From a virus (Duplodnaviria; Caudoviricetes), in IMG/VR virus record IMGVR_UViG_3300044724_009327, positions 1 through 60,263 of that record: a stretch of 60,263 nucleotides of DNA; one strand, 5' to 3'. The notes under the pieces are model-generated. The model did not search any database. It saw only the letters and a list, made by a program, of their open reading frames with translations, and was not told the DNA's origin. Both the position numbers and the translations under genes were made by a program. Of this stretch, positions 17,552 to 48,998 are shown piece by piece. The first letter of the stretch is position 1; the number at the start of each line of letters is the position of its first letter.

Positions 17552-17579
17552 ATTATAGCATATCTATATAAGTTGTCAA
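17552..17579 (-). promoter_or_regulatory. Sigma70-type promoter abutting clpS start
   Basis: TTGACA-16-TATAAT with extended -10 TG; ATG 5 nt downstream. Confidence 0.7.
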
Positions 17580-18127: not shown

Positions 18128-18186
18128 ACTGTATTTATTATAACATATATGTACTATATGTCAAATTGCGAGTGTGTTTGGTAATA

Positions 18187-24158: not shown

Positions 24159-24166
24159 ATACTATT

Positions 24167-25147: not shown

Positions 25148-25150
25148 TAG

Positions 25151-29023: not shown

Positions 29024-29037
29024 AGTTTATTATACTA

Positions 29038-30144: not shown

Positions 30145-30170
30145 AACGTATTTCTCCTTTTGTTACCACT

Positions 30171-30198
30171 ATTATAACAGGTAATGGTAAACGGTCAA
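30171..30198 (-). promoter_or_regulatory. Sigma70-type early promoter
   Basis: TTGACC-16-TATAAT with TG extension. Confidence 0.7.
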
Positions 30199-30217
30199 CC
30201 GGCCAAAAAACCAGCAT

Positions 30218-31363
30218 TTATGCGGAGTTTGTGTCTGACCCTGGCAGTAATTCTGTAGAAACTGGTTTTACACGTATTGGTTTTGTCCAAACTCCGGCGA
30301 CGTGTATCACTTCTTCTCCTGAGTATGTCCTTTCCGGATCGGCATCTCCTAACTCGTAGAAGTCACTCCTTAAATTTTTCTTGATGTCTTGTCCATATTC
30401 TGCGTACAAGTTTGTGATACCTTGTCTGTCATTGTATTTTCTGTATTCTTCTACCCTGGTACCGGCAGGATCGCTTAATTTTGGTTTTGAAGAATTTAAC
30501 ACAGGGTTTAGGCCTTCGTACCCACAGAATGCTAGAATGAAGTTGTACCACTTGCTGTCTGCTCTTTGTACATCCTCTAACCATTGTTTCGTTATCTTTG
30601 TTTTCTCTATTCTCGCGACCTCCTCTATTGCACGTATGTGTAGGTGAGTGAGTTTGATCTGTATTTCTGGGACGTCATCGCTGAGCCAAAACCAAACCAT
30701 GTCTCCTTTTTCGAAGTTCCAATGGCAGTCACTGAACATGGCATCATTTACTGTCCAGTTCCACCAGCCATCCTTTATCACCAAATGTGGTTTTTCTTTT
30801 CCAAAAACGTATCCGTTTTTCTCAGGCACATCCAAACTGAAAATACAGTTGTCATTTCCAAACATCCAAGCCATGCCTGTGTTTTGTAATGCTGTACCGA
30901 CATGTCCGTGATATATCTTGAGAGCCTTTTCAAACTCCTTCTGAGACATGTCATGAGCGTGATGAGTCTTGAATTCTGTCACGTTGTCCAGTTTTGCTAC
31001 TCTCTCGAAGTCTTTCTTGTTGTGATCATAAAGATCATTTGTGAATTTTGATATGGTTGAGGTCGCCATGTGGTGCACTGCAATTTTTACATTTGTCCTT
31101 ATGAAACTTCTCAGCACTGTTTGACTGTCTGTGCCTCCACTGTATCTCAGTTCCAGTCTGTCATACCTGTCACGTAGTATCCTGGCGTTCATGTCTGCGT
31201 AGTGATTGATGTGTAGTGGCGGTTCCTTACGCCACAGTGCGGGGTTGTCTATGAATTTGTATTTTAATTTGAGCTCGAGGCTCTGGCTGGTATCCTTTGT
31301 GAATGCCGCCAGAGCATCGACGTTGGTATAGTAAATGTTTTTTCCTACTTGGTAGTAAAGCAT
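30218..31363 (-). CDS. PP-loop-like (adenine nucleotide alpha hydrolase) protein
   Basis: LRYSGGTDS motif. Confidence 0.55.
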   Translation of the reverse strand: MLYYQVGKNIYYTNVDALAAFTKDTSQSLELKLKYKFIDNPALWRKEPPLHINHYADMNARILRDRYDRLELRYSGGTDSQTVLRSFIRTNVKIAVHHMATSTISKFTNDLYDHNKKDFERVAKLDNVTEFKTHHAHDMSQKEFEKALKIYHGHVGTALQNTGMAWMFGNDNCIFSLDVPEKNGYVFGKEKPHLVIKDGWWNWTVNDAMFSDCHWNFEKGDMVWFWLSDDVPEIQIKLTHLHIRAIEEVARIEKTKITKQWLEDVQRADSKWYNFILAFCGYEGLNPVLNSSKPKLSDPAGTRVEEYRKYNDRQGITNLYAEYGQDIKKNLRSDFYELGDADPERTYSGEEVIHVAGVWTKPIRVKPVSTELLPGSDTNSA

Positions 31364-31377
31364 TCACTATCCTCCGA

Positions 31378-32286
31378 TTACATCAAGTCCAATAGGCCTT
31401 GGTGCCAGTTCGTAAGAAACTTCAACTGTTTGTTTCTTGAGAGTTGAACTTCTGCTGGTAGTGGTCTAGGATCTCCGTTCACTTCAAAGTAAGCCGGAAG
31501 TTCTTTACTACCGTGTATCTTTTTAGCGAGAGCACCGGCTTCCTTCATTGACATGTTGAAAGCAACGAAAACAGGGTAAGTGTTCTTGTCTGCGATATCA
31601 CTAGAACTGAACTCAGCAAAGTTTGTGTACTGTGTTTCGTTCACATCTGTTGATGCGAAACAATCCATCCAATCTCTGTTCTGTCCAGCGTAAAGATAAT
31701 CTACCTCTCCACTCTGTAGAGCAGGCAAGTATTTCCTACTGCTACTGTAAGGGATTATCTTGGCAGTTGGGTTGGCTTTTAATATAACATCAGCGGCCTG
31801 GCCTTTGTAGATTCCATTTCCATTGATACCCACTCTTATGCCTTTGCCGTTTATGAAGTCATCAAGTCCACGACCTTCTGCACCTTTCACGTGACAAGCA
31901 TGGTATGGGAAACTGTAAGCGATACTCACTATGTTTTCCATCTCCATGTGGCATGGATTCTGTTTTCCATCCTCGGTTGGTACGTTTGTTGAGAACCAGT
32001 CCCAGATACCAAACACTTTCTCGTCTGTGTTTTTAAGGTAGTCGATCATCTTCGCACAACCTCTGATTGCCTTTACTTCTCCATAAGAGTCACCTAGTAG
32101 AGGAATCAGTACTGATTGATTCATTCTGTCATATGCTCCACCTGGTCTGTAGTAAAGTAAAACATTCACATCACCCGAGCCTTTTTCCCAACTGGGTTGG
32201 TCATCAGCAAAAGAAGAGGTAAATGTCATAGTCAATATCGTGAACACGAGTGTGATCATAGATATCATTTTTTTCATGTTTATCAT
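31378..32286 (-). CDS. Divergent TctC/Bug-like periplasmic binding protein
   Basis: Signal peptide, YRPGGAYD, IPYSS...ALQSGEVD; adjacent to TctA-like gene. Confidence 0.65.
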   Translation of the reverse strand: MINMKKMISMITLVFTILTMTFTSSFADDQPSWEKGSGDVNVLLYYRPGGAYDRMNQSVLIPLLGDSYGEVKAIRGCAKMIDYLKNTDEKVFGIWDWFSTNVPTEDGKQNPCHMEMENIVSIAYSFPYHACHVKGAEGRGLDDFINGKGIRVGINGNGIYKGQAADVILKANPTAKIIPYSSSRKYLPALQSGEVDYLYAGQNRDWMDCFASTDVNETQYTNFAEFSSSDIADKNTYPVFVAFNMSMKEAGALAKKIHGSKELPAYFEVNGDPRPLPAEVQLSRNKQLKFLTNWHQGLLDLM

Positions 32287-32316
32287 TTGTTTTTTCCTTT
32301 TATTGTTAGTGTTACT

Positions 32317-33651
32317 TTAATAGAAAGATTGTAGTCTATAAACCCCTTCTAAGAAAATATCGTGTAACACAAAACCATAAATCAATGGCATTGTATTGAA
32401 TCTCCTGATCAAGTATCCGAACGGTAAGAGGCAAGCCAGTATTACCATATTGTCCCACCCTGCGAATGTCTTCTGTGCTGTCGTGTAGCAAATGATCAAC
32501 AATAGCACAAAGATTCCCGAATAGAATACTTTTAAATTAAGTCCTGAAAATACCTTCAGGAAGTTGACATACTTCCCTGCTATGAACAGTCCCAGTATAC
32601 TGCTGAGTGCGAAACCTATCAGCACTATCTCATACAGGCTCTGGAAGAATGCCACTGTTGGCACCATTCCCTGGAATAGAAGTATGTTGTATACCAGTGC
32701 AGTACTGGCAGTGATTGGTATACCTGCAAAAATCATGGGCACCATGGAAGTGTAGACGCCTGCGTTGTTTGACGTTTCCGCCGCCACAAGACAGTTCACA
32801 TCACCTTTCTCGTTGTAGATACCTTTCCTCTTTCTCAACATCAGTTCTGTGATGTATGCAAGTTTTGTAGAAAGTCCCCAACTCACACCTGGCACAAATC
32901 CCGCCAGTGCACCTATCACACTGCTTCTGGCCAATGTGGATTTCATTTTAGTCAACATGGTACGAGCGGCCGACACGTATCCACTGATGGTAACTCCATC
33001 GAATTCTATCTTGCCACTGTTGTTCCATGCCTTTGCGAACACAGGCACAACGAACAAGGATATCATCACTGGCAAGAGGTCTATGCCTGCGTACAGTGAG
33101 TTGATTCCGAATGTGGCAAAGTCCCATCCTCCGTAGAAATCATGGTAACCTACCATTGCCAGCAGATTGCCTGCCATCCAGAACAAGAAACTTATCCAAA
33201 TCTTGTTTCCTGAGAAAATTATAATTGTGATACAAGCGATGCTCAACAGGAACACCTGAATGTGTGTGTTAAACATCTGGTAGAAAATATCTAGCATCGG
33301 TAGTGAGAGGTGTATCAACACTATTGCAAACATGCTGGCTATGAAACTTCCAATGGCCGCTGTCATTATTGCCTCTGATCCTCTGCCATTCTGGAACATA
33401 GAATGTCCTTCTTGTAGAGCTGGCAGACTGGTGTTGCTACCTGGTATGGCGAATACCGTGGCACTCACACTGCCAAAATACTGATGCACACTAGCAAGGC
33501 TGATGTACATGAACATTATGCTGACTGGATCCCAGGTCAATAACAGTGGGAAAACTAAAAGTATAGAAACAAATACATTCAGTCCGGGTATGATTCCGGA
33601 AATGACTCCGAGGCTTGATCCCACAATGAATGCTAATACTAATTCAAACAT
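32317..33651 (-). CDS. TctA-family tripartite tricarboxylate transporter permease
   Basis: Multi-TM; GIIPG, AIPG, GFVPG, AAETSNNA, GIP motifs. Confidence 0.82.
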   Translation of the reverse strand: MFELVLAFIVGSSLGVISGIIPGLNVFVSILLVFPLLLTWDPVSIMFMYISLASVHQYFGSVSATVFAIPGSNTSLPALQEGHSMFQNGRGSEAIMTAAIGSFIASMFAIVLIHLSLPMLDIFYQMFNTHIQVFLLSIACITIIIFSGNKIWISFLFWMAGNLLAMVGYHDFYGGWDFATFGINSLYAGIDLLPVMISLFVVPVFAKAWNNSGKIEFDGVTISGYVSAARTMLTKMKSTLARSSVIGALAGFVPGVSWGLSTKLAYITELMLRKRKGIYNEKGDVNCLVAAETSNNAGVYTSMVPMIFAGIPITASTALVYNILLFQGMVPTVAFFQSLYEIVLIGFALSSILGLFIAGKYVNFLKVFSGLNLKVFYSGIFVLLLIICYTTAQKTFAGWDNMVILACLLPFGYLIRRFNTMPLIYGFVLHDIFLEGVYRLQSFY

Positions 33652-33701
33652 GTCTTATGAGTATAACATACCCTCCGATATCCAGTCAACATTGTTAATT
33701 G

Positions 33702-33805
33702 ATGTTAGTGGAGGGGTTCCACATAGGGCGGGCCTTTTAAAACCTGGATTTCTTCCAATCCAGCAGGTCCGTTTGGTCCCACGTCATCTGAACGATGGCG
33801 TTACA
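33702..33805 (-). ncRNA. Unidentified structured RNA, copy B
   Basis: Homologous to 16316-16419; TAAATA at 33811-33816. Confidence 0.6.
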
Positions 33806-33820
33806 GGAGATATTTATTGA

Positions 33821-34279
33821 TTATTTTAACTTCTTGAGCATTTCTGATTCTGCTCTTGCTTTCCACTTGGCCTGTTCGGCTTTCTCTTCATCGGAAAGTT
33901 CTCTCCTGACAAATCCTGGCTCTTCTTTTTGTTCTTCATCTTCGACTTTGGTAGGAGCCTCCATCGGCATGCCACAGTTGTTGAACCATCTGTTGTCTGC
34001 TGTTTGATAACACACAGAGTAGAATGAATTTCCATCCATGCCTTTTACTAGTCTACGTTTTTTGTGTATCTTGCCTGTGTACTCTGAAAAATCTTTTTGT
34101 ATCAGTCTGTGTGTGCCATGTATTGAACCATACAATCTATCTATGTATATTGGGTTACCTTTGGCATCTTCACCATATTGGTTAGAGACCACTGTGAATT
34201 TTTGTTCAAACCTTTTTGGTGCTGAATCTGTTATCTTGCCCAGTCCCTCTAGTAATTTTTTTGTTTTGTCGCTTGGCAT
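33821..34279 (-). CDS. Hypothetical protein
   Basis: 152-aa ORF. Confidence 0.6.
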   Translation of the reverse strand: MPSDKTKKLLEGLGKITDSAPKRFEQKFTVVSNQYGEDAKGNPIYIDRLYGSIHGTHRLIQKDFSEYTGKIHKKRRLVKGMDGNSFYSVCYQTADNRWFNNCGMPMEAPTKVEDEEQKEEPGFVRRELSDEEKAEQAKWKARAESEMLKKLK

Positions 34280-34295
34280 AATGCTTTATATAGTT

Positions 34296-34448
34296 GAAGA
34301 CAAACAATCCAGGGACAACTTGGAACAGCCTCGACACACACCGCTAGCCAGTATGAGCCTATCCATCCATCATCGACGTAGAGCGTCTCCAAAGTTTAGA
34401 TTACAAACGAGATACTGCCCATTTGCCGCTTCTGGATTGTTTGCTTTC
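34296..34448 (-). ncRNA. Putative rod-shaped ncRNA (~150 nt; 6S-like architecture)
   Basis: 12-bp perfect terminal stem CAAACAATCCAG/CTGGATTGTTTG, continued by G-U-containing stems on the minus strand; own promoter. Confidence 0.5.
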
Positions 34449-34452
34449 TTAA

Positions 34453-34480
34453 ATTATACACTTTTAACAATATTAGTCAA
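34453..34480 (-). promoter_or_regulatory. Sigma70-type promoter
   Basis: TTGACT-16-TATAAT. Confidence 0.7.
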
Positions 34481-35000
34481 CCACGCCCAACATCTTGAAG
34501 TGATCCTGTATGGTGTATGAGTCCAGATCCACCATATTGCCACGCACATCCTTTATCATTTTGGTGTATCCTGCTAACTTGTATCTACGGAATGGGTACT
34601 CCCAATTACCCGCCTGTTGCCAGTCCCCTTCTAGTATGTGCTTGTCGGTGTCGTCAATCAGGCACAATGGCATCTGTAACACTAGTTCGGCTGATATCTT
34701 GTCGTGTAGGTATGCAGTGATTATTTTGTTCTGAGGTATCACATGCTCTAGGTGTTGTTTGCCTTCCATGTCCTGTGCTTTGTAATGATACCCCATGGGG
34801 GCCAACTGTTTCTGCATGGACCTTATGTAAAGAACCAAAGAAGTCTTTATGTGTTTCTTTGTGGCCTGGCTCCATTGATCATTGAACAGGTCTGCTTTCA
34901 TGTGATCAATATATTCTGCCAGTTCTTTTAATTCAGGTCTATCCTTTGCCTTGAAGTTTATCTCAGGTAGGTTAGTAAGGCTTTGGAAGTCTATCATCAA
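34473..35000 (-). CDS. Hypothetical protein with HNH-like EHVIP motif
   Basis: HLEHVIP; RRYK-x-AG. Confidence 0.5.
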   Translation of the reverse strand: MMIDFQSLTNLPEINFKAKDRPELKELAEYIDHMKADLFNDQWSQATKKHIKTSLVLYIRSMQKQLAPMGYHYKAQDMEGKQHLEHVIPQNKIITAYLHDKISAELVLQMPLCLIDDTDKHILEGDWQQAGNWEYPFRRYKLAGYTKMIKDVRGNMVDLDSYTIQDHFKMLGVVD

Positions 35001-35163
35001 ACTGCTCCTTTGTTATCATTTCCATTACAACTGCATCTGCACCATTGTCATAGTGTTCCCACACTGCCTCGATGATGTCTTTGTATGGCAAACCATATCC
35101 GTATTCTTCCGTCTTGTTATTTTTAGTCACAAGACAGATGTAATAACTTAATTTACTTGACAT
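34972..35163 (-). CDS. Small hypothetical protein
   Basis: Overlap-coupled between neighbours. Confidence 0.55.
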   Translation of the reverse strand: MSSKLSYYICLVTKNNKTEEYGYGLPYKDIIEAVWEHYDNGADAVVMEMITKEQFDDRLPKPY

Positions 35164-36229
35164 ACTTGTTGAAGGCCGTTTGTGCTTCTGACTCAGATGC
35201 TATGTCACCGTCCTCAAGTTTCAGTGTGACGTTCGGCATGTAACTTGGTTCGAACGTTCCGTCTTCTATGAGATACACTTCTCTCAACATATGGCTCATT
35301 GCCACTGGTGCGTCCCAGCCAACACCGTTTGCGTGTTGCCATTGTTTCTTTGTGGCAGTGTGTATAAGTGTTGCACTTGGACAAACTTTCTTTGCTGTCT
35401 CAAGCATCTTGGTCATCCATTCTAGTGGGAGTCTTTTTAATCTTTTCGCTTCGGCACCCATCTGATACTGCTTCATCAGTCCAATGAACAGACCTTGGTT
35501 GATCTCTCCACCATCCTCGTCACCGTACACGGTCTTAATTGCCAACAGAGCATCACGTAGTCCCTGTTCACCTGCCATCTTGATTCCTTTGTATGCATAA
35601 TCAAAATGTGAGAAGTAATGCTTGTTTGGTCCACACTTGCCTGGGCTCTTCCTCACACGTTTGGGCTCTAGGTCAATCTCACACTCGTCGAACACTTTCT
35701 GTACTGCGTGTGCTGTCGCCACCCGTTCTGTTTCCGTTTCTCCCATTTTGAACCTGTGTAATAGGCATCTGTGTATCTCTTCTGTGCCTGCTCTCAATAT
35801 GCCTGAGTCGTTGACTATCTCGAATGCTTCTGCATCAAAGGCCGGCTCGTCGGTTTCTACTATTGTTACTGGTATCTTTGTCCAACCTAGGAGTGCTAGA
35901 GCAACTGCCCTATGCTGTCCGTCGAAAATGTATAGTGTCTCTCCATCTGATCTCTTCACCGCTGACACAGGACAACAGACCCTGGGGTCAAACTTCTTCA
36001 TTATGTTCATGACGTGTCCTGCCCTCACATCTCTCTGTACCGAGTAATTGAATGCGAAGTGCTCCAATGGGTGATCTTCAACACCTCTCGGCAACAATCT
36101 GCCCTTTGCTATCTGATTCTGTAGATTTACTTTTGATTCTGCTAGTTTGCTCGTCCAGTTTGGGACGTCTTGTGGTGCTTCTCTTTTTACTTCTTCGACC
36201 ACGTCTAGAAGCATTTTTACCTTGCTCAT
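35153..36229 (-). CDS. ParB/Srx-fold protein with DGQHR motif
   Basis: VQRD..., YIFDGQHRAVAL; start MSKVKM with AGGAG SD. Confidence 0.7.
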   Translation of the reverse strand: MSKVKMLLDVVEEVKREAPQDVPNWTSKLAESKVNLQNQIAKGRLLPRGVEDHPLEHFAFNYSVQRDVRAGHVMNIMKKFDPRVCCPVSAVKRSDGETLYIFDGQHRAVALALLGWTKIPVTIVETDEPAFDAEAFEIVNDSGILRAGTEEIHRCLLHRFKMGETETERVATAHAVQKVFDECEIDLEPKRVRKSPGKCGPNKHYFSHFDYAYKGIKMAGEQGLRDALLAIKTVYGDEDGGEINQGLFIGLMKQYQMGAEAKRLKRLPLEWMTKMLETAKKVCPSATLIHTATKKQWQHANGVGWDAPVAMSHMLREVYLIEDGTFEPSYMPNVTLKLEDGDIASESEAQTAFNKYVK

Positions 36230-36303
36230 AATATCTCCTATAGTTAATGAGTGCAATCCAGAGCAGAATTCCTACGATAGGATAAACTCCAAATTACTCA
36301 ACT

Positions 36304-36331
36304 ATTATAGCAGATTTATGTGTGAAGTCAA
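36304..36331 (-). promoter_or_regulatory. Sigma70-type early promoter
   Basis: TTGACT-16-TATAAT with TG extension. Confidence 0.7.
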
Positions 36332-36332
36332 C

Positions 36333-36545
36333 CTACGCAGAATTGACGTCTTGCTTGAGTTCACAGGTGTGGCCGTTCTTCTCTATGATGAATCCCACAT
36401 TAGTCATGCCATCCAAAAGGGCCTTTTCCTTCTCGGCCGCGACTGTCATGCATTCGTCCATGGTATCGTAGTATTTCATGGGATCTTGCTGGAAAACAGT
36501 ACATGGGTTGCCCAGGGCACAGATTATCACGACTACCTTGAACAT
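36333..36545 (-). CDS. Small four-Cys protein
   Basis: Paralog-like to 37629-37838. Confidence 0.6.
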   Translation of the reverse strand: MFKVVVIICALGNPCTVFQQDPMKYYDTMDECMTVAAEKEKALLDGMTNVGFIIEKNGHTCELKQDVNSA

Positions 36546-36553
36546 ACTAATAG

Positions 36554-36838
36554 TTACCTCATTCGCTTCTTGCCCAGTAGGTCCCGTACGGTGTCCTTGC
36601 AGGCGTCATGCCAGTATCTTCCGGACTCCCTGAGTGCGTCATTGGCTGATCTCAGTTGTTCCATGATCCTCTCCACCTGTTTGTGCTTGGCCCGTGTAAG
36701 TGGTCTGGATTTCTCCTGTGCCTTGTCAATGATGTCCAACACCTTGTCTATCTGAGGACAGGTGATGTCTGGAACTCGGGGGGCCTTCTTACGTATTCGC
36801 GACCAGTAGGTGGTCCGCTTCCTTGGTTTGGTTGGCAA
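36554..36838 (-). CDS. Basic hypothetical protein
   Basis: GGAG SD, TTG start, PDITCP motif. Confidence 0.55.
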   Translation of the reverse strand: MPTKPRKRTTYWSRIRKKAPRVPDITCPQIDKVLDIIDKAQEKSRPLTRAKHKQVERIMEQLRSANDALRESGRYWHDACKDTVRDLLGKKRMR

Positions 36839-36897
36839 TAGCGTCTCCCTTGATACAGTTATTTACTGACCATGGAGTGCTTTATGAAGTGCTAGTA

Positions 36898-37065
36898 TTA
36901 CTTGATGCCGTGACGCTTCTCGTGTTTGCGATGTCCTTGGTGTCTGCCCATGTAGTACTCACCGGGCTCGTAGTCCCAGACCTTGCCGTGGTGTCCACGC
37001 CAGTCCGCCCAGGCCATTCTTGCTTTTACTAGTAATTTAACTAATGGGTTCCTACTTGTTCTCAC
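36898..37065 (-). CDS. 55-aa His/Arg-rich peptide (not in ORF track)
   Basis: GTG start; ...ARMAWADWRGHHGKVWDYEPGEYYMGRHQGHRKHEKRHGIK. Confidence 0.5.
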   Translation of the reverse strand: MRTSRNPLVKLLVKARMAWADWRGHHGKVWDYEPGEYYMGRHQGHRKHEKRHGIK

Positions 37066-37072
37066 TTGTCTT

Positions 37073-37276
37073 CTAACGCCCTATCTTTTTCTTTCTACCT
37101 AGTGGTATTTTTTGGTCTTTGACAAAAACTTCTCCTGCCTTCGTCGTCCACTCAATAGTTACCATCTTGGCTTTAGAACCGCCCTGAAATGACTTCACGG
37201 CTTTCTTGTAGGACAAGGCCTCGACATCTTTGGTCTCTGTTCCGTCTGTGATCTTGAATATTCTGTTTTTTGGCAT
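37073..37276 (-). CDS. Small basic hypothetical protein
   Basis: Probable start MPKNRIF at 37276; divergent from tmRNA. Confidence 0.6.
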   Translation of the reverse strand: MPKNRIFKITDGTETKDVEALSYKKAVKSFQGGSKAKMVTIEWTTKAGEVFVKDQKIPLGRKKKIGR

Positions 37277-37297
37277 ATACCTTAATTTAGCATAGAA

Positions 37298-37326
37298 TTG
37301 ACAGAACGTCAACCTTAAGGTATAAT
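37298..37326 (+). promoter_or_regulatory. Consensus sigma70 promoter of tmRNA
   Basis: Exact TTGACA-17-TATAAT. Confidence 0.88.
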
Positions 37327-37331
37327 TATGT

Positions 37332-37617
37332 TTAAGTTTGTTGACTAACAATCAATAGATGCTGAAGACCTGGGTGCAATTCCCAGCCACTCCACCATTT
37401 AAGCAATGAAACTTGAGGGGTGGAATTAGGATCGATTCACATTGAAACTTGTTACGAGAACTTCCAGTAGGCACGAGGTAACGTCCAGTTTTTAAATGCA
37501 AACAAAAAAGCATTAGGATTTGCTGACTTAACAGTTGGTATGTCTGAATTGAGATTAGCGGCGTAATAACCGTTTATTTCAGGGGCGGCCCCTGCCTTGC
37601 AACAGAAGTGGGGCACT
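37332..37617 (+). ncRNA. ssrA: Circularly permuted two-piece tmRNA
   Basis: T-arm CTGGG-TGCAATT-CCCAG and CCACTCC-A-CCA (37370-37397) precede GGGGTGG (37417-37423), giving a 7-bp acceptor stem with G3:U70; TAAAT then tag ANKKALGFADLTVGMSELRLAA-stop (37498-37566). Confidence 0.92.
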
Positions 37618-37628
37618 TAAATAGTGTT

Positions 37629-37838
37629 ATGTTCAAATTATTTGCAGTCATGTGTTTCCTGGTCAACGGTGCGACCGAATGCACACCCTACAACGACAGT
37701 GAAGGAAAAATCTACCAGACATTGTCGGAGTGTGAGAAGGACGCCCAGTACAGGTTCTACGGGCTCACGGACATTTTCACCCGTTATGAACAGCCTTACG
37801 AGCAGATCCTCATAGGTTGCGAAGAAATCAAAGACTAG
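37629..37838 (+). CDS. Small four-Cys protein
   Basis: Start MFKLFAV 5 nt after TAAATA; paralog-like to 36333-36545. Confidence 0.6.
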   Translation: MFKLFAVMCFLVNGATECTPYNDSEGKIYQTLSECEKDAQYRFYGLTDIFTRYEQPYEQILIGCEEIKD

Positions 37839-38404
37839 TTCTTTACAGCGTACCAGACATCCTTGCCAGTGACCCTGTGGTTCTCCCCAAATGCTTCTTG
37901 TACAGATTGCTTCACAGGAGTCCAGTTGTAGTCATCGCCCATGGAATACCCTCCGCTTTTTAACTTGGGTAGATAGGCTTCTATCTCATTTTTAACAAAA
38001 GGATAGGAATGGTCTGAGTCGTGGAATATGAAATCCATTGAGTTATCTGGGATTTGATCAATAATATTCAATGACCTGCCTTTAATGATATTAATCCTAT
38101 CTCCCCATTGCTCTGCTTCTTTCCTGAACCTCTGTTCGTTGGCATTATGATTCCACACCTGTCCTTCGTGCTTGAACTCCTCTAGCCTGACTAATTTGCC
38201 ACCTTTGAACACCGGCTTCTTGTTGTACTGCCAGTCGTACTCAGGATTGTCATTTTGTACCTCCCAAGCGTCAACGCAGGTCATGTTCACAGACGTGTGC
38301 TTCATCAACCAGAAAGTTGTTACTCCCACCCAAACGCCCAGTTCCAACCCCTGTTGCCAATTGTGTTGCTGTGCAAATTTTGTTATTACTCTATATCTGT
38401 CCAT
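37835..38404 (-). CDS. Class I SAM methyltransferase (Methyltransf_24-like)
   Basis: LELGVWVG, DFIFHDSDHSY, LKSGG..GDDY. Confidence 0.8.
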   Translation of the reverse strand: MDRYRVITKFAQQHNWQQGLELGVWVGVTTFWLMKHTSVNMTCVDAWEVQNDNPEYDWQYNKKPVFKGGKLVRLEEFKHEGQVWNHNANEQRFRKEAEQWGDRINIIKGRSLNIIDQIPDNSMDFIFHDSDHSYPFVKNEIEAYLPKLKSGGYSMGDDYNWTPVKQSVQEAFGENHRVTGKDVWYAVKN

Positions 38405-39093
38405 GTTGTCTCCACTGTTTTATTTTTACCCCTGGTACCTTTCTCATGGTATATCAGACATTGGTTGTGCTGTTTTAGATCGTCCTCGGTCTTTACATCA
38501 TAGTGTCTGATCCACTCCCCGTTTCTAAGTTCTGTGTATGGTAACTCTTTAAAAAACTGTTTGATAACTTTTTGGTCAACTCCTATCATGTCTGTGTGTT
38601 GGATATCACTTGCCATTTGTTTAGCGGCTTCTAGTGACTCTTTTCTTCTGCTTGGATGAAAATGGCAGAACGTGGCCATGAGCCTACCATTGTATGTTGT
38701 GAAGGCCATGTCCTTGACCAAGTGTTGGTGTTGTGATTCACTCGGTTGTTTCAGTGCATATGAATCAACATCGGCAACAATTACGTGTTGATTGCTTCGT
38801 ACTTTGTGTCCTAGTAGTATGAAACGTTGTGCTTGGCAGTAGGTCACATAGGAGTATGGCCATTTCAATATGCTGTCGTTGGTTTCACAATGCGTGTAGG
38901 AAACATCAAGTTTTTCAAGTCTTTGCAAAGATTGGGCAGATGGATCAACCACATGAACGTGTATTGGTAGTTGCCATTTTTCTGTGAATGTCTTGTAGAA
39001 TCTTGGAAAGTACTTGTTGAAATACTTCTCATCACAGGAAGTCAGTATGAATTCATCATACATGGGCCATTCGCCTAGGACATCTTTGAACAT
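38386..39093 (-). CDS. Putative GT-A-like glycosyltransferase
   Basis: ADVD DxD motif, DQ motif, HEKG. Confidence 0.45.
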   Translation of the reverse strand: MFKDVLGEWPMYDEFILTSCDEKYFNKYFPRFYKTFTEKWQLPIHVHVVDPSAQSLQRLEKLDVSYTHCETNDSILKWPYSYVTYCQAQRFILLGHKVRSNQHVIVADVDSYALKQPSESQHQHLVKDMAFTTYNGRLMATFCHFHPSRRKESLEAAKQMASDIQHTDMIGVDQKVIKQFFKELPYTELRNGEWIRHYDVKTEDDLKQHNQCLIYHEKGTRGKNKTVETTWTDIE

Positions 39094-40337
39094 TAACTTA
39101 AGGTGTCAGCGGATTGGTTTAGATCTAGTGCCTGAGATATTTGTCTTCGGTCTTCGTCGTTCATGTTTTCAAGCAACAGTTCACTCTGTGTGTAGATTTC
39201 TCTGTTCGCTATGGGTATTTTCAGTTGCTGGCATGACTGCGTCACTATCTCGTCCACTGTCAATCTATCAAAACCCGCCGTGTCTATCCTGCTGTCACGT
39301 TTGGCCTTGTTCGCGACCGCAAATATGTCTAGTGGGTCTTGTACATCAGGCAGTCCCGAGTTGGTGTAGATGGTGTTGATCATAGCCTCTTTTTCTGAAT
39401 CACTGTTTGTCGTGTATATAGGATTGAGTGATGCGAAGTTTTCTTTGTAGGTCTTGTAGTAGTTGACCCATTCTGGTGCCTGTGCCACTTTAGATAGTAG
39501 TTCAGCCATCTCGTCATTACTGCCCATTCCTGCATAGTTCTGCACATCTATTAGGCTTTGTATGTAATCTCTCAAGGTCACAAGGTTTGCGTTCTCCAGT
39601 GATACTTGTTTTTCTATTTTTATTTCTGCTGATGCCAACTGGTCACGTTTGGCCAGGAAAGTGTTTGTGTTCAAACCATTGTTGAGGTTGGTGTGTGCAG
39701 TCGCCACAGCAGTTTGAAGTGGAGTCAGCAATGGTGTCCTGTGTTCAATGTCTGTACTGTCATCGGTAAGGCTGTTTATGTGCGCCTTCAAGTTGTCATA
39801 TGCAGTCTCCAAAGCGGTCTCCTCTGATAGATTGAATCCAACTATGAAGTCTACAGATTCCTTGAGCATGGTCATTGCCGGCAGAGTACTGCCATCATTA
39901 GACTCTAGTAAAATATTGTTGAGAGTACCCAAGTGATCATTGACACTTCTCGATTTGTCTTTGGCCGTGCCTCCGTACATCAATGGAATGATCCCTTGCA
40001 GTGATTGAACACTGCTTAATATCTCGTCGAAAGTACCTGGTGTTGGGTTCAATGCATCTGTGATCGGAAGTATGCTACCGTCGATTATGCTTTTGGTGTG
40101 TCGCAATAGATCACCCAACAGGCGTCCTAAATTAAGATAGGGAACATTGTTGATAGCATCTTTGATATCATTCTTCTGTGACAGGGAAAGCACACCGTTG
40201 GCAGTGATCACAGCATCCAATTCAAAACTTTTGATAACCCAACCCACTTTGATCTGGTTCACTGAATTCTCTATCGCTTGGTCTGAGAAGTTGGGTGAGA
40301 TATCTATGAGGGTGCTGAGTCCTTTTTTAATGGCCAT
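39093..40337 (-). CDS. Hypothetical late protein (possibly baseplate/tail associated)
   Basis: Co-transcribed after PAAR gene. Confidence 0.55.
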   Translation of the reverse strand: MAIKKGLSTLIDISPNFSDQAIENSVNQIKVGWVIKSFELDAVITANGVLSLSQKNDIKDAINNVPYLNLGRLLGDLLRHTKSIIDGSILPITDALNPTPGTFDEILSSVQSLQGIIPLMYGGTAKDKSRSVNDHLGTLNNILLESNDGSTLPAMTMLKESVDFIVGFNLSEETALETAYDNLKAHINSLTDDSTDIEHRTPLLTPLQTAVATAHTNLNNGLNTNTFLAKRDQLASAEIKIEKQVSLENANLVTLRDYIQSLIDVQNYAGMGSNDEMAELLSKVAQAPEWVNYYKTYKENFASLNPIYTTNSDSEKEAMINTIYTNSGLPDVQDPLDIFAVANKAKRDSRIDTAGFDRLTVDEIVTQSCQQLKIPIANREIYTQSELLLENMNDEDRRQISQALDLNQSADTLS

Positions 40338-40339
40338 TG

Positions 40340-40645
40340 TTAGCCTCCCGCGAAAACTGTGGTTGCACCTTTGTACATCATGCCCTGGTCCGTGCTGTCA
40401 CCTATCCTCGCCGATGGTATGCCTTTTACGAAAACACTCATGGAGCCTCTGTTGACTCTGGCACCCAAGTGGGGTATACAGTACTTGCCAAACAGTATCG
40501 TGTGGAAGGCGACCTTATCACCCATAACTAGGTTTGGCTTGCCCTCAGAAAACACATCGAATTGTCTGGCTATAACAGGTGCTGTGAAAGAACATAGGTG
40601 TCCTGTAAAACACTTATCACCCATTCTTGACATTGGACTTGACAT
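40340..40645 (-). CDS. PAAR-domain spike tip protein
   Basis: RMGD..H, GSMSVFVKGIPSARIGD, G-x-TTVFAG; TATAAATA at 40654-40661. Confidence 0.85.
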   Translation of the reverse strand: MSSPMSRMGDKCFTGHLCSFTAPVIARQFDVFSEGKPNLVMGDKVAFHTILFGKYCIPHLGARVNRGSMSVFVKGIPSARIGDSTDQGMMYKGATTVFAGG

Positions 40646-40681
40646 AATGCTTGTATTTATAGGTTTAGAAAACCGCTCGTA

Positions 40682-41782
40682 TTATAATTTAAACTTGGAG
40701 AATTGGCCTTTCTTGACATCCTGTTTGATGCCGCCAACTATGTATGACTCTACTTCTGTTTCCTGTGGTGCGACCTGCATACCTTTTGAACTCAACCAGT
40801 GCTGTGTCCATGGCAGTGGATTCTGCGATGCTGAAACATCGTATAATGGATCATATCCCAGTGCCCTCAGCCTCTTGTTGGCAATCCACTCAACGTAGTT
40901 GCCCAACAGTTTCTCATTGAGTCCTATTATAGATCCATCCTTGAACAGGTACTTGGCCCATGCTTTCTCTTCCTCGACACAGTCCTTGAACATCTGTATC
41001 ACTGTCTTCTCCGTGCCTTTCATGGCCTTGGTCATTTCTGGGTCATCACCCTTTTGCCATGCCTTGATCACGTGTGTGGAAAGATTTAAATGTGTTGCTT
41101 CGTCCCTTGCTATCAATGAGAGGATCTTTGCCGAACCTTCCATCAGTTTGAGTTCGCCGAATGCGAATGTGCAGGCGAATGATATGTAGAACCTTAGACC
41201 TTCTAGCAGGTTAACTGTGTTCATTGCCAGGTAAAGTTGTTTCTTGAGAGCAATCATATCCACTTTCTTGCCCACAGCATGATCCAATGCCATCTTGCCA
41301 AACTTGTCATATTCCCCTGTGACGCTTTTTGCTCTCTTCAGAATCTCTTTGTCGTCTAGTATCGTGTCAAAAACTTCTGAAGGATCTGAGTAAACGTTCT
41401 TCATGATGTGTGTGTATGAACGTGAGTGTATAGTTTCAAAGAAATCCCAAGTCACTATGCAACCTTCCAGTTCTGGATTGCTAACATATGGCAAGAACAT
41501 AAGACTTGGTCCTCTGCCCTGCACACTGTCCAGCAGTGTTTGATATTTCAAGTTTGATGTGAATATGTGTTTCTGTTCTGGTCTGAAGTTCTGGAAGTCC
41601 GCTCTGTCCTTCTGCAAACTAACTTCCTCAGGCCTCCAAAAGTAACCTATCATTGTTTGATTCAATTTGTCGAACTGTGGATACTTGAACTCGTCGTATC
41701 TCTGCACGCCGCCATCCTCACCAAAGAACATAGGTTGTTTAGTGAAGTCAACTTTGGCCCGGTTAAAAACTGTTTTCGTCAT
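40682..41782 (-). CDS. nrdB: Ribonucleotide reductase class Ia beta subunit
   Basis: FWRPEEV, ETIHSRSY, LEGLRFY, RDEATH, VAPQETE. Confidence 0.97.
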   Translation of the reverse strand: MTKTVFNRAKVDFTKQPMFFGEDGGVQRYDEFKYPQFDKLNQTMIGYFWRPEEVSLQKDRADFQNFRPEQKHIFTSNLKYQTLLDSVQGRGPSLMFLPYVSNPELEGCIVTWDFFETIHSRSYTHIMKNVYSDPSEVFDTILDDKEILKRAKSVTGEYDKFGKMALDHAVGKKVDMIALKKQLYLAMNTVNLLEGLRFYISFACTFAFGELKLMEGSAKILSLIARDEATHLNLSTHVIKAWQKGDDPEMTKAMKGTEKTVIQMFKDCVEEEKAWAKYLFKDGSIIGLNEKLLGNYVEWIANKRLRALGYDPLYDVSASQNPLPWTQHWLSSKGMQVAPQETEVESYIVGGIKQDVKKGQFSKFKL

Positions 41783-41797
41783 AATAATTCTTCGATG

Positions 41798-44200
41798 TTA
41801 GATTGTACAGGCGTCGCACTCACCGTCGTCTGCGGTACTACTTATCTGCTCGACTGGATTTTCAGGTTCGAGAATAACATCCTCTCCGTCGTCCTCCAGT
41901 TGTGTGGCAATACCCGCTGGTTGTACATCCTCTTCCTCCCCTTTGAAATCGTATGTGTTCTGATAATAACTTGTCTTCCACCCATATTTGTATGCTGTCA
42001 GCATGTCTTGTGCCATGGCCGAAAGAGGCACTTCGTTGTTTTCATGGTGTAATGGGTTGTAACTCCAGTTGCCCGATATGGCCTGATCAAAGTACTTCTG
42101 CATCATCGCCACAACATTGATGTAACCTGTGTTGTTGGGCATGTCCCACAACAGTGTATAATCATTTTTAAGTTTAGGGAACCCTGGTGCTATCTGCTTC
42201 AGTGGACCTTTCTTGCTTTTCTTGATTGCCATCAATGCTCTCGGTGGCTCAATACCATTTGTCTCGTTTGAAACCACAGAACTACTCTCACTTGGCATCT
42301 GTGCTGACAGTGTGCTGTGTCTCAGTCCATACTTGGCAATGTCTTTCCTTAGACTCTCCCATGCCATTCTCTGTTTGTGTGGCACGATCTCATCGATCTC
42401 TTTCTTGTAGTGATCTATTGGAAGTAGGCCGTCTGCGTATTTCGTTCTCTCGAATCCTTCACATTTGCCTTTCTCCATTGCTATGTTGCAACTTGCTCTA
42501 AGAAGATTGTATTGGAATGCTTCTGTGAGTCTGTCGACTATGTCCCATGCTTTTGGATCTGAATACTTGACACCATTCTTTGCTAGGTAGTGTGCCAGTC
42601 CAATATATCCAATTCCTAAACTTCTTCTTTTCTTTGTGCTTACTTCCGCCGCTTTAACTGGATAATCTTGATAGTCTATAATTTGTTCCAGTGCTCTAAC
42701 ACTTAGGTCACATATATTTTCTAGTTCACTTAAATCATTCAGGCCTCCTACATTGACCGCTGAAAGAATACAAAGTGCAATCTCTCCCTGATCATCGTGG
42801 ATGTCTTGTATGGGTGTAGTGGGTAGAGTGATCTCTTGACACAGATTACTCATTGAAACTTTATCTTTGAATGAACTGTGTGAGTTACAGTGATCCAAGT
42901 TCATTATGTAGATACGTCCTGTCTCTGCTCTCTCTTTCAACAAGTCAAAGAACAAGTCTTGTGCTGGTACCGTTTTCTTTGGAATAGTTTTGTCTGCTTC
43001 GTATTTCAAGTAAAGGTCATCAAACTCCTCTGTTCCAAACGCATCGTAGAGTCCAGGTGCCTGGTGTGGAGAAATCAAAGTGATGTCTTCCTCGTTCATG
43101 AATCTCTCATAGAACAGTTTACTGATCTGTATGGAGTAATCCATACGTCTAACTCTGTTGTCCTCTGTGCCTTTGTTGTTTTTCAATACTAGGATGTCTT
43201 CAATCTCTGGGTGCCATATGGGAAAGTGTACAGTTGCGTTTCCGCCACGCACACCATTCTGCGTACAACATCTCACAGTGGATTCGAATTTCTTTAGGAA
43301 CGGAATGACTCCTGTGTGTTGGACCTCCCCTCCCCTTATTTTAGAGTTGATACCTCTGATACGTCCTGCGTTGATTCCTATGCCTGCTCTCCTGGCAACG
43401 TATAAACCAATGGCCATGTCACTTGAGAAGATTGAAGGAAGTGTGTCGTCACTGTCTACTAGAACGCAAGAAGCAAATTGTCTTATTGGAGTTCTCACAC
43501 CCGCCATCACTGGAGTTGGTATGTTTATTTTGTGTAAAGATATTGCATCGTAATATTTTTTAACATAACTCATTCTGGTCTTTGTTGGATATCCTGCGAA
43601 AAGAGTTGCCGCGATCATCATGTACATGTCCTGTGGTGTCTCATACAGTTGTCCTGTGCTTCTGTCCTGCACAAGGTACTTGTCACATATCTGTCTAAGT
43701 CCTGCGTATGTGAATTTTAGATCCCTGTCTCTCTTGATCCATGTGTTGAATTTTTTAATCTCTGTTTTGTTGTACTGTTCGAGTATTCCTTTGTCATACA
43801 CACCCAGTCTAATGTTCCTCAGAATAAGTTTTAATAATGGAATGTATTCGTACTGTCCGTGTGCTTCCTTCCTTACATCATAGGAAAGTAATCTCGCCGC
43901 CGCATACTGATAGTTGGGCGACTCTAAACTGATCAAGTCATTTGCTGAACGCACTAAAACATTCTGAATGTCCTTGGTTGTCATGCCATCATAGAACTGT
44001 ATGTTGGCATTCATCTCTATCTGTGAGCTCGATACTCCTGCCAGTCCTTCGCAGGCCTCTTCTACTACGAAATGTATTTTGTTGATGTCAAGTGGTTCTA
44101 GTCTGCCGTCTCTCTTTTGAACTTGGATCGTACTGGAGTTTGTGTTCGGCATTAAATATTTGTAATTCTTGTTTTTGATTTTTGTTTTTATTGTATCCAT
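41798..44200 (-). CDS. nrdA: Ribonucleotide reductase class Ia alpha subunit
   Basis: ATP cone KRDG, PTP, SCVL, SNLCQEI, KTSYY, C-terminal CDAC; start may be MPNT at 44152. Confidence 0.97.
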   Translation of the reverse strand: MDTIKTKIKNKNYKYLMPNTNSSTIQVQKRDGRLEPLDINKIHFVVEEACEGLAGVSSSQIEMNANIQFYDGMTTKDIQNVLVRSANDLISLESPNYQYAAARLLSYDVRKEAHGQYEYIPLLKLILRNIRLGVYDKGILEQYNKTEIKKFNTWIKRDRDLKFTYAGLRQICDKYLVQDRSTGQLYETPQDMYMMIAATLFAGYPTKTRMSYVKKYYDAISLHKINIPTPVMAGVRTPIRQFASCVLVDSDDTLPSIFSSDMAIGLYVARRAGIGINAGRIRGINSKIRGGEVQHTGVIPFLKKFESTVRCCTQNGVRGGNATVHFPIWHPEIEDILVLKNNKGTEDNRVRRMDYSIQISKLFYERFMNEEDITLISPHQAPGLYDAFGTEEFDDLYLKYEADKTIPKKTVPAQDLFFDLLKERAETGRIYIMNLDHCNSHSSFKDKVSMSNLCQEITLPTTPIQDIHDDQGEIALCILSAVNVGGLNDLSELENICDLSVRALEQIIDYQDYPVKAAEVSTKKRRSLGIGYIGLAHYLAKNGVKYSDPKAWDIVDRLTEAFQYNLLRASCNIAMEKGKCEGFERTKYADGLLPIDHYKKEIDEIVPHKQRMAWESLRKDIAKYGLRHSTLSAQMPSESSSVVSNETNGIEPPRALMAIKKSKKGPLKQIAPGFPKLKNDYTLLWDMPNNTGYINVVAMMQKYFDQAISGNWSYNPLHHENNEVPLSAMAQDMLTAYKYGWKTSYYQNTYDFKGEEEDVQPAGIATQLEDDGEDVILEPENPVEQISSTADDGECDACTI

Positions 44201-44343
44201 ATTTATCTAAATCTGTGTTTATAACTTTTTTTATAAAAATTTGTCCTGCGTCTACGACTAAAACTGCTAGGTCGTTTTGCGTTTTTATAATGTACTAATA
44301 TTATGACAAAAAAAGTTTTTTGTCTAGTGAATTAAAAGTTATT

Positions 44344-44362
44344 TGTGGATAATTGTGGACAA
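44344..44362 (-). promoter_or_regulatory. Two tandem DnaA boxes upstream of nrdAB
   Basis: TTATCCACA (44344-44352, exact) and TTGTCCACA (44354-44362) just upstream of TAGACA-17-TAATAT. Confidence 0.6.
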
Positions 44363-44371
44363 CTTAAGGTA

Positions 44372-45973
44372 TTATGCTAGTATTGTTGTCTGGTAATCGA
44401 ACTTTGATGTGTGAGTCGCGTCGGTAGATGTGTACTGCAACTTGATTGTTTCGTTCCCTGCTGTGGAATCCTTGTTGTCAAGTACAGCAGAAAGTGTAAC
44501 GCCAACACTGGCACCGGCTTCAACGAAGTCGTCGGAGTAGGATATGTTGACTCCATCAGATGATATCGTCATCTCTCCTGTCCTTGTGTCTGCATTTCTT
44601 TCAATTTTGTATTTTACTGACAATCCCTTCTTGTTCAATCCAGGGAATTCGTTAATGGTGGCGGCCGTTGACTGATTGTTGTTTAAAGTAAATTGTTTGA
44701 TTGCTTTGGTTGTTACACCAATACCTTGCAACTCAGGTGCGGCGTTCATGTGTGAACTACCATCTGCTCTTCTTAGGTCTGTTCTTTCAAAGAAATCTAA
44801 AACTGATGAACATTCATCACCGTCAAACTGTATAACAGGAACTTCGTCGATTGATCCAATGCCTTTGTTGCTGTTGGCAACATCCTTGGCATACCAGTTG
44901 CCGGTTGAAATAACATTTCTTGGATAAACTGTTCCAGATGCATTCTTAGACCATAATGCTTGTTGATGTATAGTGCTCCAACTTGATCCTGAGAACTGTA
45001 CATCTCTTGGTCCTACGGTCAATCCGTTTGTTGTTCCGTCTAGTGTGCCACCAATTAATGCACCGTAGTATGATGTACTAAAATCACAGTCATTGAATCT
45101 TACATTTGTTACGTCATGACTCAGATCAACTAGTCTAGCAAATTTTGTAAACTGGCATTGATTGAAAATTATATGTGAGCTCTGTAATGCATTTGAAGAA
45201 GTCACTGTCACTCCTTTTGAAGTTGCCACGTCTGGACCACCTTGTGCATATGAACCTTCGAACATGCAGTTATTGAAATAAACTTTGTTGACCTTGTCCA
45301 TTGACACACCTGCATATGCAACAGAATTTTTAAGTGTCATGTTTGATATCTGAATCTGGTTGACTAGTGCAGTTATGCTCGCGCCAACGTTCTTTGCATT
45401 GTCCTGTGTGACCATGACGGCATTTGTTGCTCCTGAATTCCTTATTATGGTCTTCTCTGGACCTTCGCCTACCAAGTGTGCATATGGTGGTATCTTTAGT
45501 GCGGCAGTGATCTTGTACTTGCCTGCCGGAAAGAAAAGCACTCTCCTAGAGTTTGAATCCACCTTATCGGTTGCTGTGAATAGCTCATCAATTGCTGTTT
45601 GAATTGCTGTTGTGTCGTCTGTTGCCGCCGCGATCGTTGCCGCCGTGTCACCGTCACCTTTGGCTCCAAAATCTTTTACAGAAACATACTCGTCCAGTCT
45701 CTGTTGTAAAGCCCTTGATACAGAGGAAGTGATCGTAGTCGCATCTCCCAAGTAACCTTTGTAGATGTGTTGTAGTGCTGTGGTGAACGTTGAACTGCCT
45801 GAGGTCATGATCTCTGTGTTGCCCACTGCCGGAGCACCATCCGCCACTGTGCCGTTACCTATGTACAATCTCTGATCATCTATAGACCAACCCAGTTCTC
45901 CAGCCGCTAGTTGCGGTAGATCCGTTTGTTTACCTCTTCTATGTTGTATGCGGCTTATCTGAACTATGGGCAC
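44372..45973 (-). CDS. Virion protein with pectate-lyase-like beta-helix
   Basis: QISRIQHRRG..LPQLAAGELGW, VSVKDFGAKGDG..DDT-x-AIQ, FFPAGKY; TATAAATA at 46012-46019. Confidence 0.75.
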   Translation of the reverse strand: MPIVQISRIQHRRGKQTDLPQLAAGELGWSIDDQRLYIGNGTVADGAPAVGNTEIMTSGSSTFTTALQHIYKGYLGDATTITSSVSRALQQRLDEYVSVKDFGAKGDGDTAATIAAATDDTTAIQTAIDELFTATDKVDSNSRRVLFFPAGKYKITAALKIPPYAHLVGEGPEKTIIRNSGATNAVMVTQDNAKNVGASITALVNQIQISNMTLKNSVAYAGVSMDKVNKVYFNNCMFEGSYAQGGPDVATSKGVTVTSSNALQSSHIIFNQCQFTKFARLVDLSHDVTNVRFNDCDFSTSYYGALIGGTLDGTTNGLTVGPRDVQFSGSSWSTIHQQALWSKNASGTVYPRNVISTGNWYAKDVANSNKGIGSIDEVPVIQFDGDECSSVLDFFERTDLRRADGSSHMNAAPELQGIGVTTKAIKQFTLNNNQSTAATINEFPGLNKKGLSVKYKIERNADTRTGEMTISSDGVNISYSDDFVEAGASVGVTLSAVLDNKDSTAGNETIKLQYTSTDATHTSKFDYQTTILA

Positions 45974-48996: not shown

Positions 48997-48998
48997 AC

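Follow-up and report, generated by a model that had tools for sequence, protein, structure and literature searches.

Phage-borne two-piece tmRNAs and the locus examined

Transfer-messenger RNA (tmRNA), the product of ssrA, occurs in alphaproteobacterial cells in a two-piece form, the Caulobacter type, which was reportedly described by Keiler, Shapiro and Williams in 2000, and the tmRNAs of mycobacteriophages such as the Bxz1 group and of Bacillus phage G are one-piece. In the present paper we describe a tmRNA gene of the two-piece, circularly permuted kind, which lies with its promoter at positions 37298-37617 of the IMG/VR virus record IMGVR_UViG_3300044724_009327, a record of 60,263 nt with linear ends that is classed as viral; the whole of this record was analysed and is referred to as the window. 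We regard the gene, with a probability of approximately 85%, as the functional ssrA gene of a large marine T4-like myophage, encoding an alpha-type two-piece tmRNA.

The ssrA-bearing phages listed in 2014 were mycobacteriophages and Bacillus phage G (PMC4131195), some of the huge phages of Al-Shayeb et al. (2020) carry tmRNA together with SmpB (PMC7162821), and phage tmRNAs are taken to support translation during infection (PMC4131195, PMC7162821). Among the closest described systems are those of Buchholz et al. (2022), who report a two-piece ssrA behind an early promoter in the Methylophilales phage Melnitz. Their survey of 18,146 phage genomes yielded 53 two-piece tmRNAs, 50 of which were of marine or aquatic origin, and they find permuted tmRNAs in 17 of 47 Melnitz-like contigs (PMC9004378). 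Phage-borne two-piece tmRNAs are already published, and the window gene adds one more, distinct from that of Melnitz. It has in common with the tmRNAs of Melnitz and the pelagimyophages an alpha-type permuted ssrA, a sigma-70-like early promoter and a tag ending in LAA, and it too lies in a marine T4-like myophage with a curli csgG gene. However, whereas the Melnitz tmRNA has the acceptor strand GGGGGCG, an intervening segment of approximately 150 nt and the 14-residue tag ANDNYVPVDYALAA, the window gene combines GGGGUGG with a hairpin spacer of 19 nt and a tag of 22 residues, and the two tmRNAs share no DNA similarity detectable by blastn. A glutamine riboswitch in the 3' part of ssrA is reported as common, not defining, in the Melnitz/pelagimyophage group (PMC9004378), and no glutamine-riboswitch family reached its gathering score anywhere in the window. 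The window phage also differs from this group in its larger estimated size (the record being 24% complete at 60 kb) and in encoding ClpX.

Organization and class of the tmRNA gene

The window carries a complete tmRNA gene of the alpha type, circularly permuted and equipped with a promoter and a tag of its own. ARAGORN, run on the whole 60-kb window, found a single tRNA-like gene, which it flagged as a permuted tmRNA at 37304-37657 on the plus strand with the tag ANKKALGFADLTVGMSELRLAA. The Rfam covariance models, judged by their curated gathering thresholds, gave 87.5 bits for RF04321 tmRNA_permuted (gathering 47; E 2e-15), with the model alignment beginning at 37334, and 78.3 bits for RF01849 alpha_tmRNA (gathering 50; E 1.4e-19), spanning 37294-37617. 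The beta_tmRNA model scored 33.6 bits, below its gathering threshold of 84, and the cyano_tmRNA model found no match in the window sequence. As the alpha models lie above gathering, the beta model below it and the cyanobacterial model finds nothing, the tmRNA is of alpha type. An initial annotation of the window, made from the letters of the sequence, had described a permuted tmRNA with a perfect acceptor stem, a G3:U70 pair, a TAAAT-GCA resume context and a 22-codon tag ending in LAA, and had named ARAGORN and the Rfam alpha_tmRNA model as checks; both scans were positive, and direct sequence reading confirmed its coordinates for every element.

In the permuted order, all on the plus strand, the CCA-bearing 3' half lies upstream of the 5' half. 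The acceptor piece, i.e. the 3' half of the tRNA-like domain (37334-37397, from the RF04321 alignment), carries the 5' strands of helix P2 (37334-38, 37348-51, 37359-61 and 37364-66, from the same alignment), and direct reading places after them the T-arm (37370-37386), the acceptor 3' strand CCACTCC (37387-37393), the discriminator A (37394) and the encoded CCA (37395-37397). It is followed by the intervening spacer of 19 nt (37398-37416, direct reading) and then by the coding piece (37417-37617; ARAGORN, Rfam and direct reading), which opens with the acceptor 5' strand GGGGUGG (37417-37423, direct reading), the D-loop analogue AAUUAGGAUCGA (37424-35) and the P2 3' strands (37436-37463). The two acceptor strands, GGGGUGG and CCACUCC, pair at seven of seven positions, with G3 at 37419 opposite U70 at 37391, so that the stem and the discriminator A carry the features of alanine identity, and P2 joins the pieces through the pairings AAGUU:AACUU, ACAA:UUGU, AUG:CAU and GAA:UUC (RF04321 alignment and direct reading). 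The predicted pseudoknot PK1 (37464-37486) lies just upstream of the resume codon GCA at 37498, which is preceded by TAAAT and opens the tag open reading frame (ORF) of 22 sense codons (37498-37563). The frame ends in the double stop TAA TAA (37564-37569), helix 5 (37551-80) encloses the stops, and a 3' pseudoknot with the conserved GCAACAGAA loop occupies 37581-37614.

This arrangement resembles that of the cellular alphaproteobacterial tmRNAs (RF01849) in the order of acceptor piece, spacer and coding piece, in G3:U70, in a P2 that joins the pieces, in a single putative pseudoknot on the 5' side and a single one on the 3' side, the latter with the GCAACAGAA loop, and in a tag of the form AN...LAA. 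The window gene differs from them in its lower score (78 compared with approximately 300 bits), in a missing P2 segment, in being AT-rich and in a tag that is longer and basic at residues 3-4, and no near relative of it was found among 401 sampled alphaproteobacterial genomes.

Conservation and covariation among relatives

Relatives were sought in IMG/VR by a gapped pattern of the two acceptor strands, which occurs in at least 118 viral contigs. Among the matches listed, ARAGORN found a permuted tmRNA in 96 of 117 new loci, in addition to the loci L002-L004 and the window, and none in the other 21; L085 is a chance match. A wide alignment was built of 51 sequences (48 distinct), namely 50 representatives at less than 93% identity plus L003, which include two cellular Rhodobacterales genes and L085. 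When the helices of the window were laid on this alignment, 82.2% of cells were paired, compared with 66.4% in shuffles, and 261 cells showed changes on both sides of a pair, compared with 91. Paired cells amounted to 91% in P2b, 93% in P2c', 94% in P2c and 99% in the T-arm, each with double changes; the acceptor stem is uninformative in this respect, because its strands were fixed by the search pattern. These data show that the T-arm and the P2 helices joining the two pieces are maintained by compensatory change.

A closer group of five sequences, comprising the window, L002, L003, L090 and L169, has a 22-residue tag. In this family 91.3% of cells were paired, compared with 84.8% in shuffles, and compensatory changes were seen in the T-arm, in P2 and in stem 1 of PK1. 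The helices of the tRNA-like domain were 100% paired here except for P2c/c' (87%), and P2a is supported only in this family. Stem 1 of PK1 was 100% paired with changes on both sides, reading CC:GG in the window clade and GG:CC/CU in L090 and L169, and stem 2 was 84% paired. The window and L090 share, as read by eye, GCCCC:GGGGC in stem 2 of the 3' pseudoknot, where L002 and L003 have GGCCC:GGGCC; this stem scored 53% in the family alignment, owing to an offset of L002 and L003.

The spacer between the two pieces is not a loose linker but a conserved, covarying hairpin. Positions 37398-37416 fold into a 5-bp stem, 37399-37403 with 37412-37416, closed by the 8-nt loop CAAUGAAA. In the 51 sequences 88.7% of the stem cells were paired, compared with 69.2% in shuffles, and changes on both sides were seen in 35 cells, compared with 6.4. 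The spacer is exactly 19 nt long in most relatives, and most also keep the loop CAAUGAAA, the fifth and sixth bases of which vary in some. We infer that the 19-nt spacer is removed on maturation, and it is conceivable that this lineage of phage tmRNAs uses the hairpin and its AAUGAAA loop as a dedicated signal for processing. We found no earlier description of a spacer hairpin in a phage tmRNA in those parts of the literature that our searches covered.

These results bear on whether the gene is a decaying or non-tagging copy, be it a hitch-hiker of host origin or a tRNA-like domain that serves only as a decoy to titrate SmpB. The low alpha_tmRNA score relative to cellular genes would fit decay, and a tmRNA consisting of the tRNA-like domain only, as described for mycobacteriophage DS6A (PMC4131195), offers a model for a decoy. 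However, all parts of the window gene are present, its frame is open, the resume context is canonical and the stop is double; moreover, its helices are kept by compensatory changes, all five family members retain the tag frame, and L002 and L003 share the consensus promoter. We consider such a copy very improbable; the window tmRNA gene is real and complete, and it is probably functional.

The tag and its possible ClpX partner

The 22-residue tag was seen in five viral contigs, the window and four others, among the matches listed. The tag DNA of the window is 92-93% identical with that of L002, L003 and L090, compared with 39% for PK1 in L090, and part of this conservation may be due to a 12-bp hairpin inside the tag frame (37516-37545, plus strand), which is 98% paired in the five sequences. 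The string ANKKALGFAD did not occur in the literature searched; the supplementary tables of PMC9004378 might list this tag family.

A census of the 100 permuted viral tmRNAs among the matches listed showed that the tag ends in LAA in 74, MAA in 25 and IAA in one. The tag has 8-14 residues in 84 of them, 29 residues in 11 and 22 residues, beginning ANKK, in five. Residues 2-4 vary widely (NN, NE, DS, NS, NF, ND, NL and NK all occur). Departure from ANDN is thus common in the phage tmRNA radiation, and the suggestion in the initial annotation that a start in ANKK might alter recognition by SspB finds no specific support here. The 29-residue tags (ANDNALNNVTFVNFGKQKSVVNEDFALAA and variants; L109, L117, L119, L076 and others) form a second long-tag family, in which the acceptor stem is that of the window and the spacer is C-rich and 18 nt long.

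The window also encodes a complete ClpX of 415 aa (19452-20699, minus strand; Pfam zf-C4_ClpX 1e-13, AAA_2 2e-33). The motifs GYVG, RKH and MGF are visible in its translation, and we take these to be the functional loops known by those names in ClpX, MGF being presumably the IGF-like one. Copies 89-91% identical with it are present in G001 and G002, two large related viral fragments used for comparison, so that all three large fragments hold a complete ClpX. A 190-aa ORF just upstream of clpX (20699-21271) has no Pfam or PHROG match and was rejected as a candidate ClpP, as it is not recognizable as such. The pairing of tmRNA with ClpX has a precedent in Bacillus phage G, which is reported to carry a tmRNA together with ClpX and ClpP (PMC4131195, PMC12484599); of the partners found elsewhere, SmpB in some huge phages and ClpP in phage G, neither was found in the window fragment. 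It is possible that the phage ClpX is the functional partner of the LAA-ending tag.

The long tag and the ClpX gene raise the question of whether the main role of this functional RNA is directed proteolysis, in which the phage's own tag and own ClpX would mark host nascent chains or selected proteins. The DNA of the long tag is conserved even between diverged relatives, ClpX is co-encoded in three of three large related fragments, and amino-acid recycling is raised by Buchholz et al. in their discussion of phage tmRNAs (PMC9004378). On the other hand, nothing separates this role from plain rescue, which tagging follows anyway, the in-frame RNA hairpin may partly explain the conservation of the tag DNA, and ClpX is encoded approximately 17 kb away on the opposite strand, so the tmRNA and clpX do not form an operon. 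Directed proteolysis as the main role, which would serve to recycle amino acids or to time infection, appears to us unlikely. A further reading, which we hold to be improbable, is that the phage ClpX, for example through its N-terminal zinc finger, reads the tag segment ALGFADLTVG...ELR as a private channel in place of host SspB. Were this so, the phage would govern the degradation of truncated host proteins made once host mRNA has broken down. The ...LRL... in the tag may resemble motifs that are bound by the N-domain of ClpX.

Promoter and transcription

The exact TTGACA-17-TATAAT promoter that had been reported upstream of the gene is present at that position (37298-37326, plus strand), with TTGACA at 37298-37303, a 17-nt spacer and TATAAT at 37321-37326. 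This sigma-70-type promoter is consensus at 12 of 12 hexamer positions, and both hexamers are kept in L002 and L003. The window holds four perfect TTGACA-N16-18-TATAAT sites, compared with 0.06 expected from shuffles. As the RF04321 alignment begins at 37334, approximately seven bases past the -10 hexamer, transcription likely starts at approximately 37333-37334. Directly downstream of the tmRNA, a small ORF of 69 aa with a hydrophobic N-terminus (37629-37838, plus strand), the start of which is kept in L002 and L003, may be co-transcribed with it, because no terminator-like site lies between the two. A PHROG scan of both small ORFs flanking the tmRNA, including this one, assigned them to no family. 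Many short-tag relatives (L105, L107, L110, L111 and others) have a TTGACA...TATAAT-like promoter immediately 3' of the tmRNA 3' pseudoknot; unlike these, the window is without a promoter-like site at that place.

Sequencing runs were surveyed with k-words sampled from 36900-38100. Six runs labelled as estuary metagenome contain 63-76% of these words, and one of the six may be the source sample; in six RNA-library runs the share is only 10-13%. RNA contigs were compared from four runs (X19, X20, X22 and X23), and contigs of three of these libraries (X20, X22 and X23, from three studies) match the tag region. The X23 contig covers 37489-37571 with no differences, the X22 contig 37463-37510 with 0-1 differences, and the X20 contig 37489-37585 with three differences and a tail that resembles L002/L003; X19 gave a single contig, on the gene upstream of the tmRNA only, and the lack of contig cover over 37597-37965 in X22 proves nothing. 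Several of the RNA contigs diverge just upstream of the tag, within PK1, and thus derive from further members of the 22-residue tag family. These matches hint, though weakly, at transcription of the tmRNAs of this family. The initial annotation had gone further in calling the RNA strongly expressed, which is an overstatement, as the basis for it is a consensus promoter and short RNA-library contigs, which cannot give a level.

The carrier phage and its host

The carrier appears, from its gene content, to be a marine T4-like myophage related to pelagimyophages. A homologue of the curli secretion channel CsgG (1327-2166, minus strand; Pfam 4e-53) is most like that of Pelagibacter phage HTVC008M (56% identity), followed by that of Melnitz (49%); it represents the curli module already noted for phages of the HTVC008M/Melnitz type. 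A DUF6267 protein has its best match in HTVC008M (42%) and its next in T4-like cyanophages. Other genes encode a class I (phage-type) ribonucleotide reductase, an Mtd_N/pectate-lyase tail-fibre-like protein, a PAAR protein, an endolysin-like glucosaminidase and several radical-SAM proteins. The kinship of CsgG and DUF6267, together with this gene content, places the phage in or near the marine T4-like myophages with known two-piece tmRNAs. The CheckV completeness of the record is 24%, which at 60 kb points to a genome of well above 200 kb; G001, G002 and the window are 17-24% complete, and the tmRNA gene with its promoter is present in G001 and G002 as well. Neither a megablast search with 30000-45000 nor a distant blastn search with the tmRNA gave a match among 50,697 phage records, so no named phage is tied to the tmRNA by DNA.

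The assignment of the gene to a phage, which had also been claimed at the outset, agrees with the viral record and its marine T4-like myophage genes. One might suppose instead that a cellular ssrA had been carried on a misclassified contig or a genomic island, or that an attP-type ssrA fragment of a temperate phage had been picked up, since tmRNA genes are reported as common integration sites and prophages as carriers of ssrA fragments (PMC9004378, PMC4131195), and the window holds such cell-like genes as TctA, a TonB-receptor Plug protein and ClpX. Set against this are the classification of the record as viral, the best matches of CsgG and DUF6267 in HTVC008M, Melnitz and T4-like cyanophages, and the presence of Mtd_N tail-fibre-like, PAAR, endolysin-like and phage-type ribonucleotide reductase proteins. 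The attachment-site fragment was rejected, as the ssrA gene is complete and no Phage_integrase match was found in the window, G001 or G002. In addition, an exact 26-mer of the T-arm and acceptor region, which occurs in three viral contigs, was found in none of the genome contigs among genomes of 185,579 species. A cellular or attP-type origin is in our view extremely improbable.

The gapped acceptor pattern was found in 61 genome contigs, only six of which have an ARAGORN tmRNA; the other 55 matches look like chance. The six cellular tmRNAs all belong to Rhodobacterales, and have the tag ANDNRAPVALAA or ANDNRAPMAVAA, quite unlike that of the window; cellular genes of this group score approximately 300 bits with alpha_tmRNA, compared with 78 for the window. 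These matches are too weak a basis on which to name a host. A blast search with the tmRNA against the 401 sampled alphaproteobacterial genomes gave six short, weak matches (E 6e-4 to 8e-3), and host assignment by this route was rejected. Melnitz infects a gammaproteobacterium and yet carries an alpha-type tmRNA (PMC9004378). Given this case, and as we found no close cellular tmRNA, the alpha-type form cannot name the host, and the value of the gene as a host marker, which the initial annotation had put forward, is unsupported. The window tmRNA is best seen as a member of a phage-resident tmRNA radiation.

Proposed mode of action

If the gene is functional, we envisage that host sigma-70 RNA polymerase would start at approximately 37334 from the consensus promoter, probably early in infection. 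In the precursor, the upstream 3' half, comprising the P2 strands, the T-arm, the acceptor strand and CCA, would pair with the downstream 5' half, RNase P would cut 5' of G37417 and the spacer hairpin would be trimmed back to the encoded CCA, leaving a mature product in which an acceptor piece of approximately 64 nt is base-paired to a coding piece of approximately 200 nt. Host alanyl-tRNA synthetase could then charge this RNA by way of G3:U70 and A73, and host SmpB could bring it to ribosomes that have stalled on mRNAs which are broken or lack a stop codon, where translation would resume at the GCA at 37498 and append ANKKALGFADLTVGMSELRLAA. The C-terminal LAA would route the product to ClpXP, and the extra, phage-encoded ClpX may dock on host ClpP. 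The likely benefit would be that ribosomes are kept free and truncated proteins recycled during the degradation of host mRNA.

Several observations weigh against this account. The alpha_tmRNA score of 78 bits is far below the 296-301 bits of cellular alphaproteobacterial tmRNAs, and one segment of P2 in the RF01849 model is deleted in the window. On the 51-sequence alignment P2a was 54% paired and the PK1 stems 49% and 43%, and helix 5 was only 76% paired in the tag family; inspection of the wide alignment by eye showed the same PK1 topology elsewhere, covarying in its own shifted register, and the poor transfer of P2a and PK1 is at least partly an alignment problem. No SmpB, ClpP or SspB gene was found in the window, G001 or G002, which are fragments of 17-24% completeness, and a search for SmpB found none in the records G003 and G004 either. 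The tmRNA must therefore depend on factors of the host or on genes that we did not observe, and, because the records are fragments, the phage as a whole may still encode the missing genes. A scan of 36800-38000 revealed no terminator-like site, so the 3' boundary given for the coding piece is provisional. With respect to transcription, many RNA pieces over 37363-37441 continue into the sequence of other family members and thus provide no evidence of expression by the phage of the window, and the RNA-library contigs are assemblies, in which ends, strand and level are not readable and carry-over of DNA is possible.

Phage tmRNAs show that large phages take over translation quality control besides tRNA supply. 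To the published kind the present gene adds the family of 22-residue tags in five viral contigs, the co-occurrence with ClpX and the covarying spacer hairpin. These leave the current picture unchanged, and only the pairing of tag and ClpX could lead to a new mechanism.

Other features of the window

An AdoCbl-II (cobalamin) riboswitch (10200-10278, minus strand; 81.1 bits, gathering 36.5) immediately precedes a gene (8510-10117, minus strand) whose 535-aa product has the Plug domain of TonB-dependent receptors, and this pair is adjoined by a gene for a B12-binding radical-SAM protein (11255-12748, minus strand). This would be a phage-borne B12 riboswitch placed ahead of a BtuB-like outer-membrane receptor. 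A membrane subunit of the TctA family of tripartite tricarboxylate transporters is encoded at 32317-33651 (minus strand; Pfam 2e-65), and the ORFs neighbouring it have no family match.

The three other perfect TTGACA-N16-18-TATAAT sites (17552-17579, 18137-18164 and 29029-29057) are on the minus strand, as are most of the listed window ORFs, and are likely, judged by their sequence, to be host-sigma-70 (early) promoters. The G+C content is approximately 55% at 1-2000 and 24001-26000, compared with approximately 42% for the window, and at 24001-26000 the AT skew is reversed and two plus-strand ORFs (24167-26002) are without a Pfam match; both G+C-rich stretches may be recently acquired DNA. Finally, radical-SAM-type proteins number at least five, encoded at 11255-12748, at 15155-16288 (minus strand) and at 46792-50297 (plus strand), the last being three consecutive genes.

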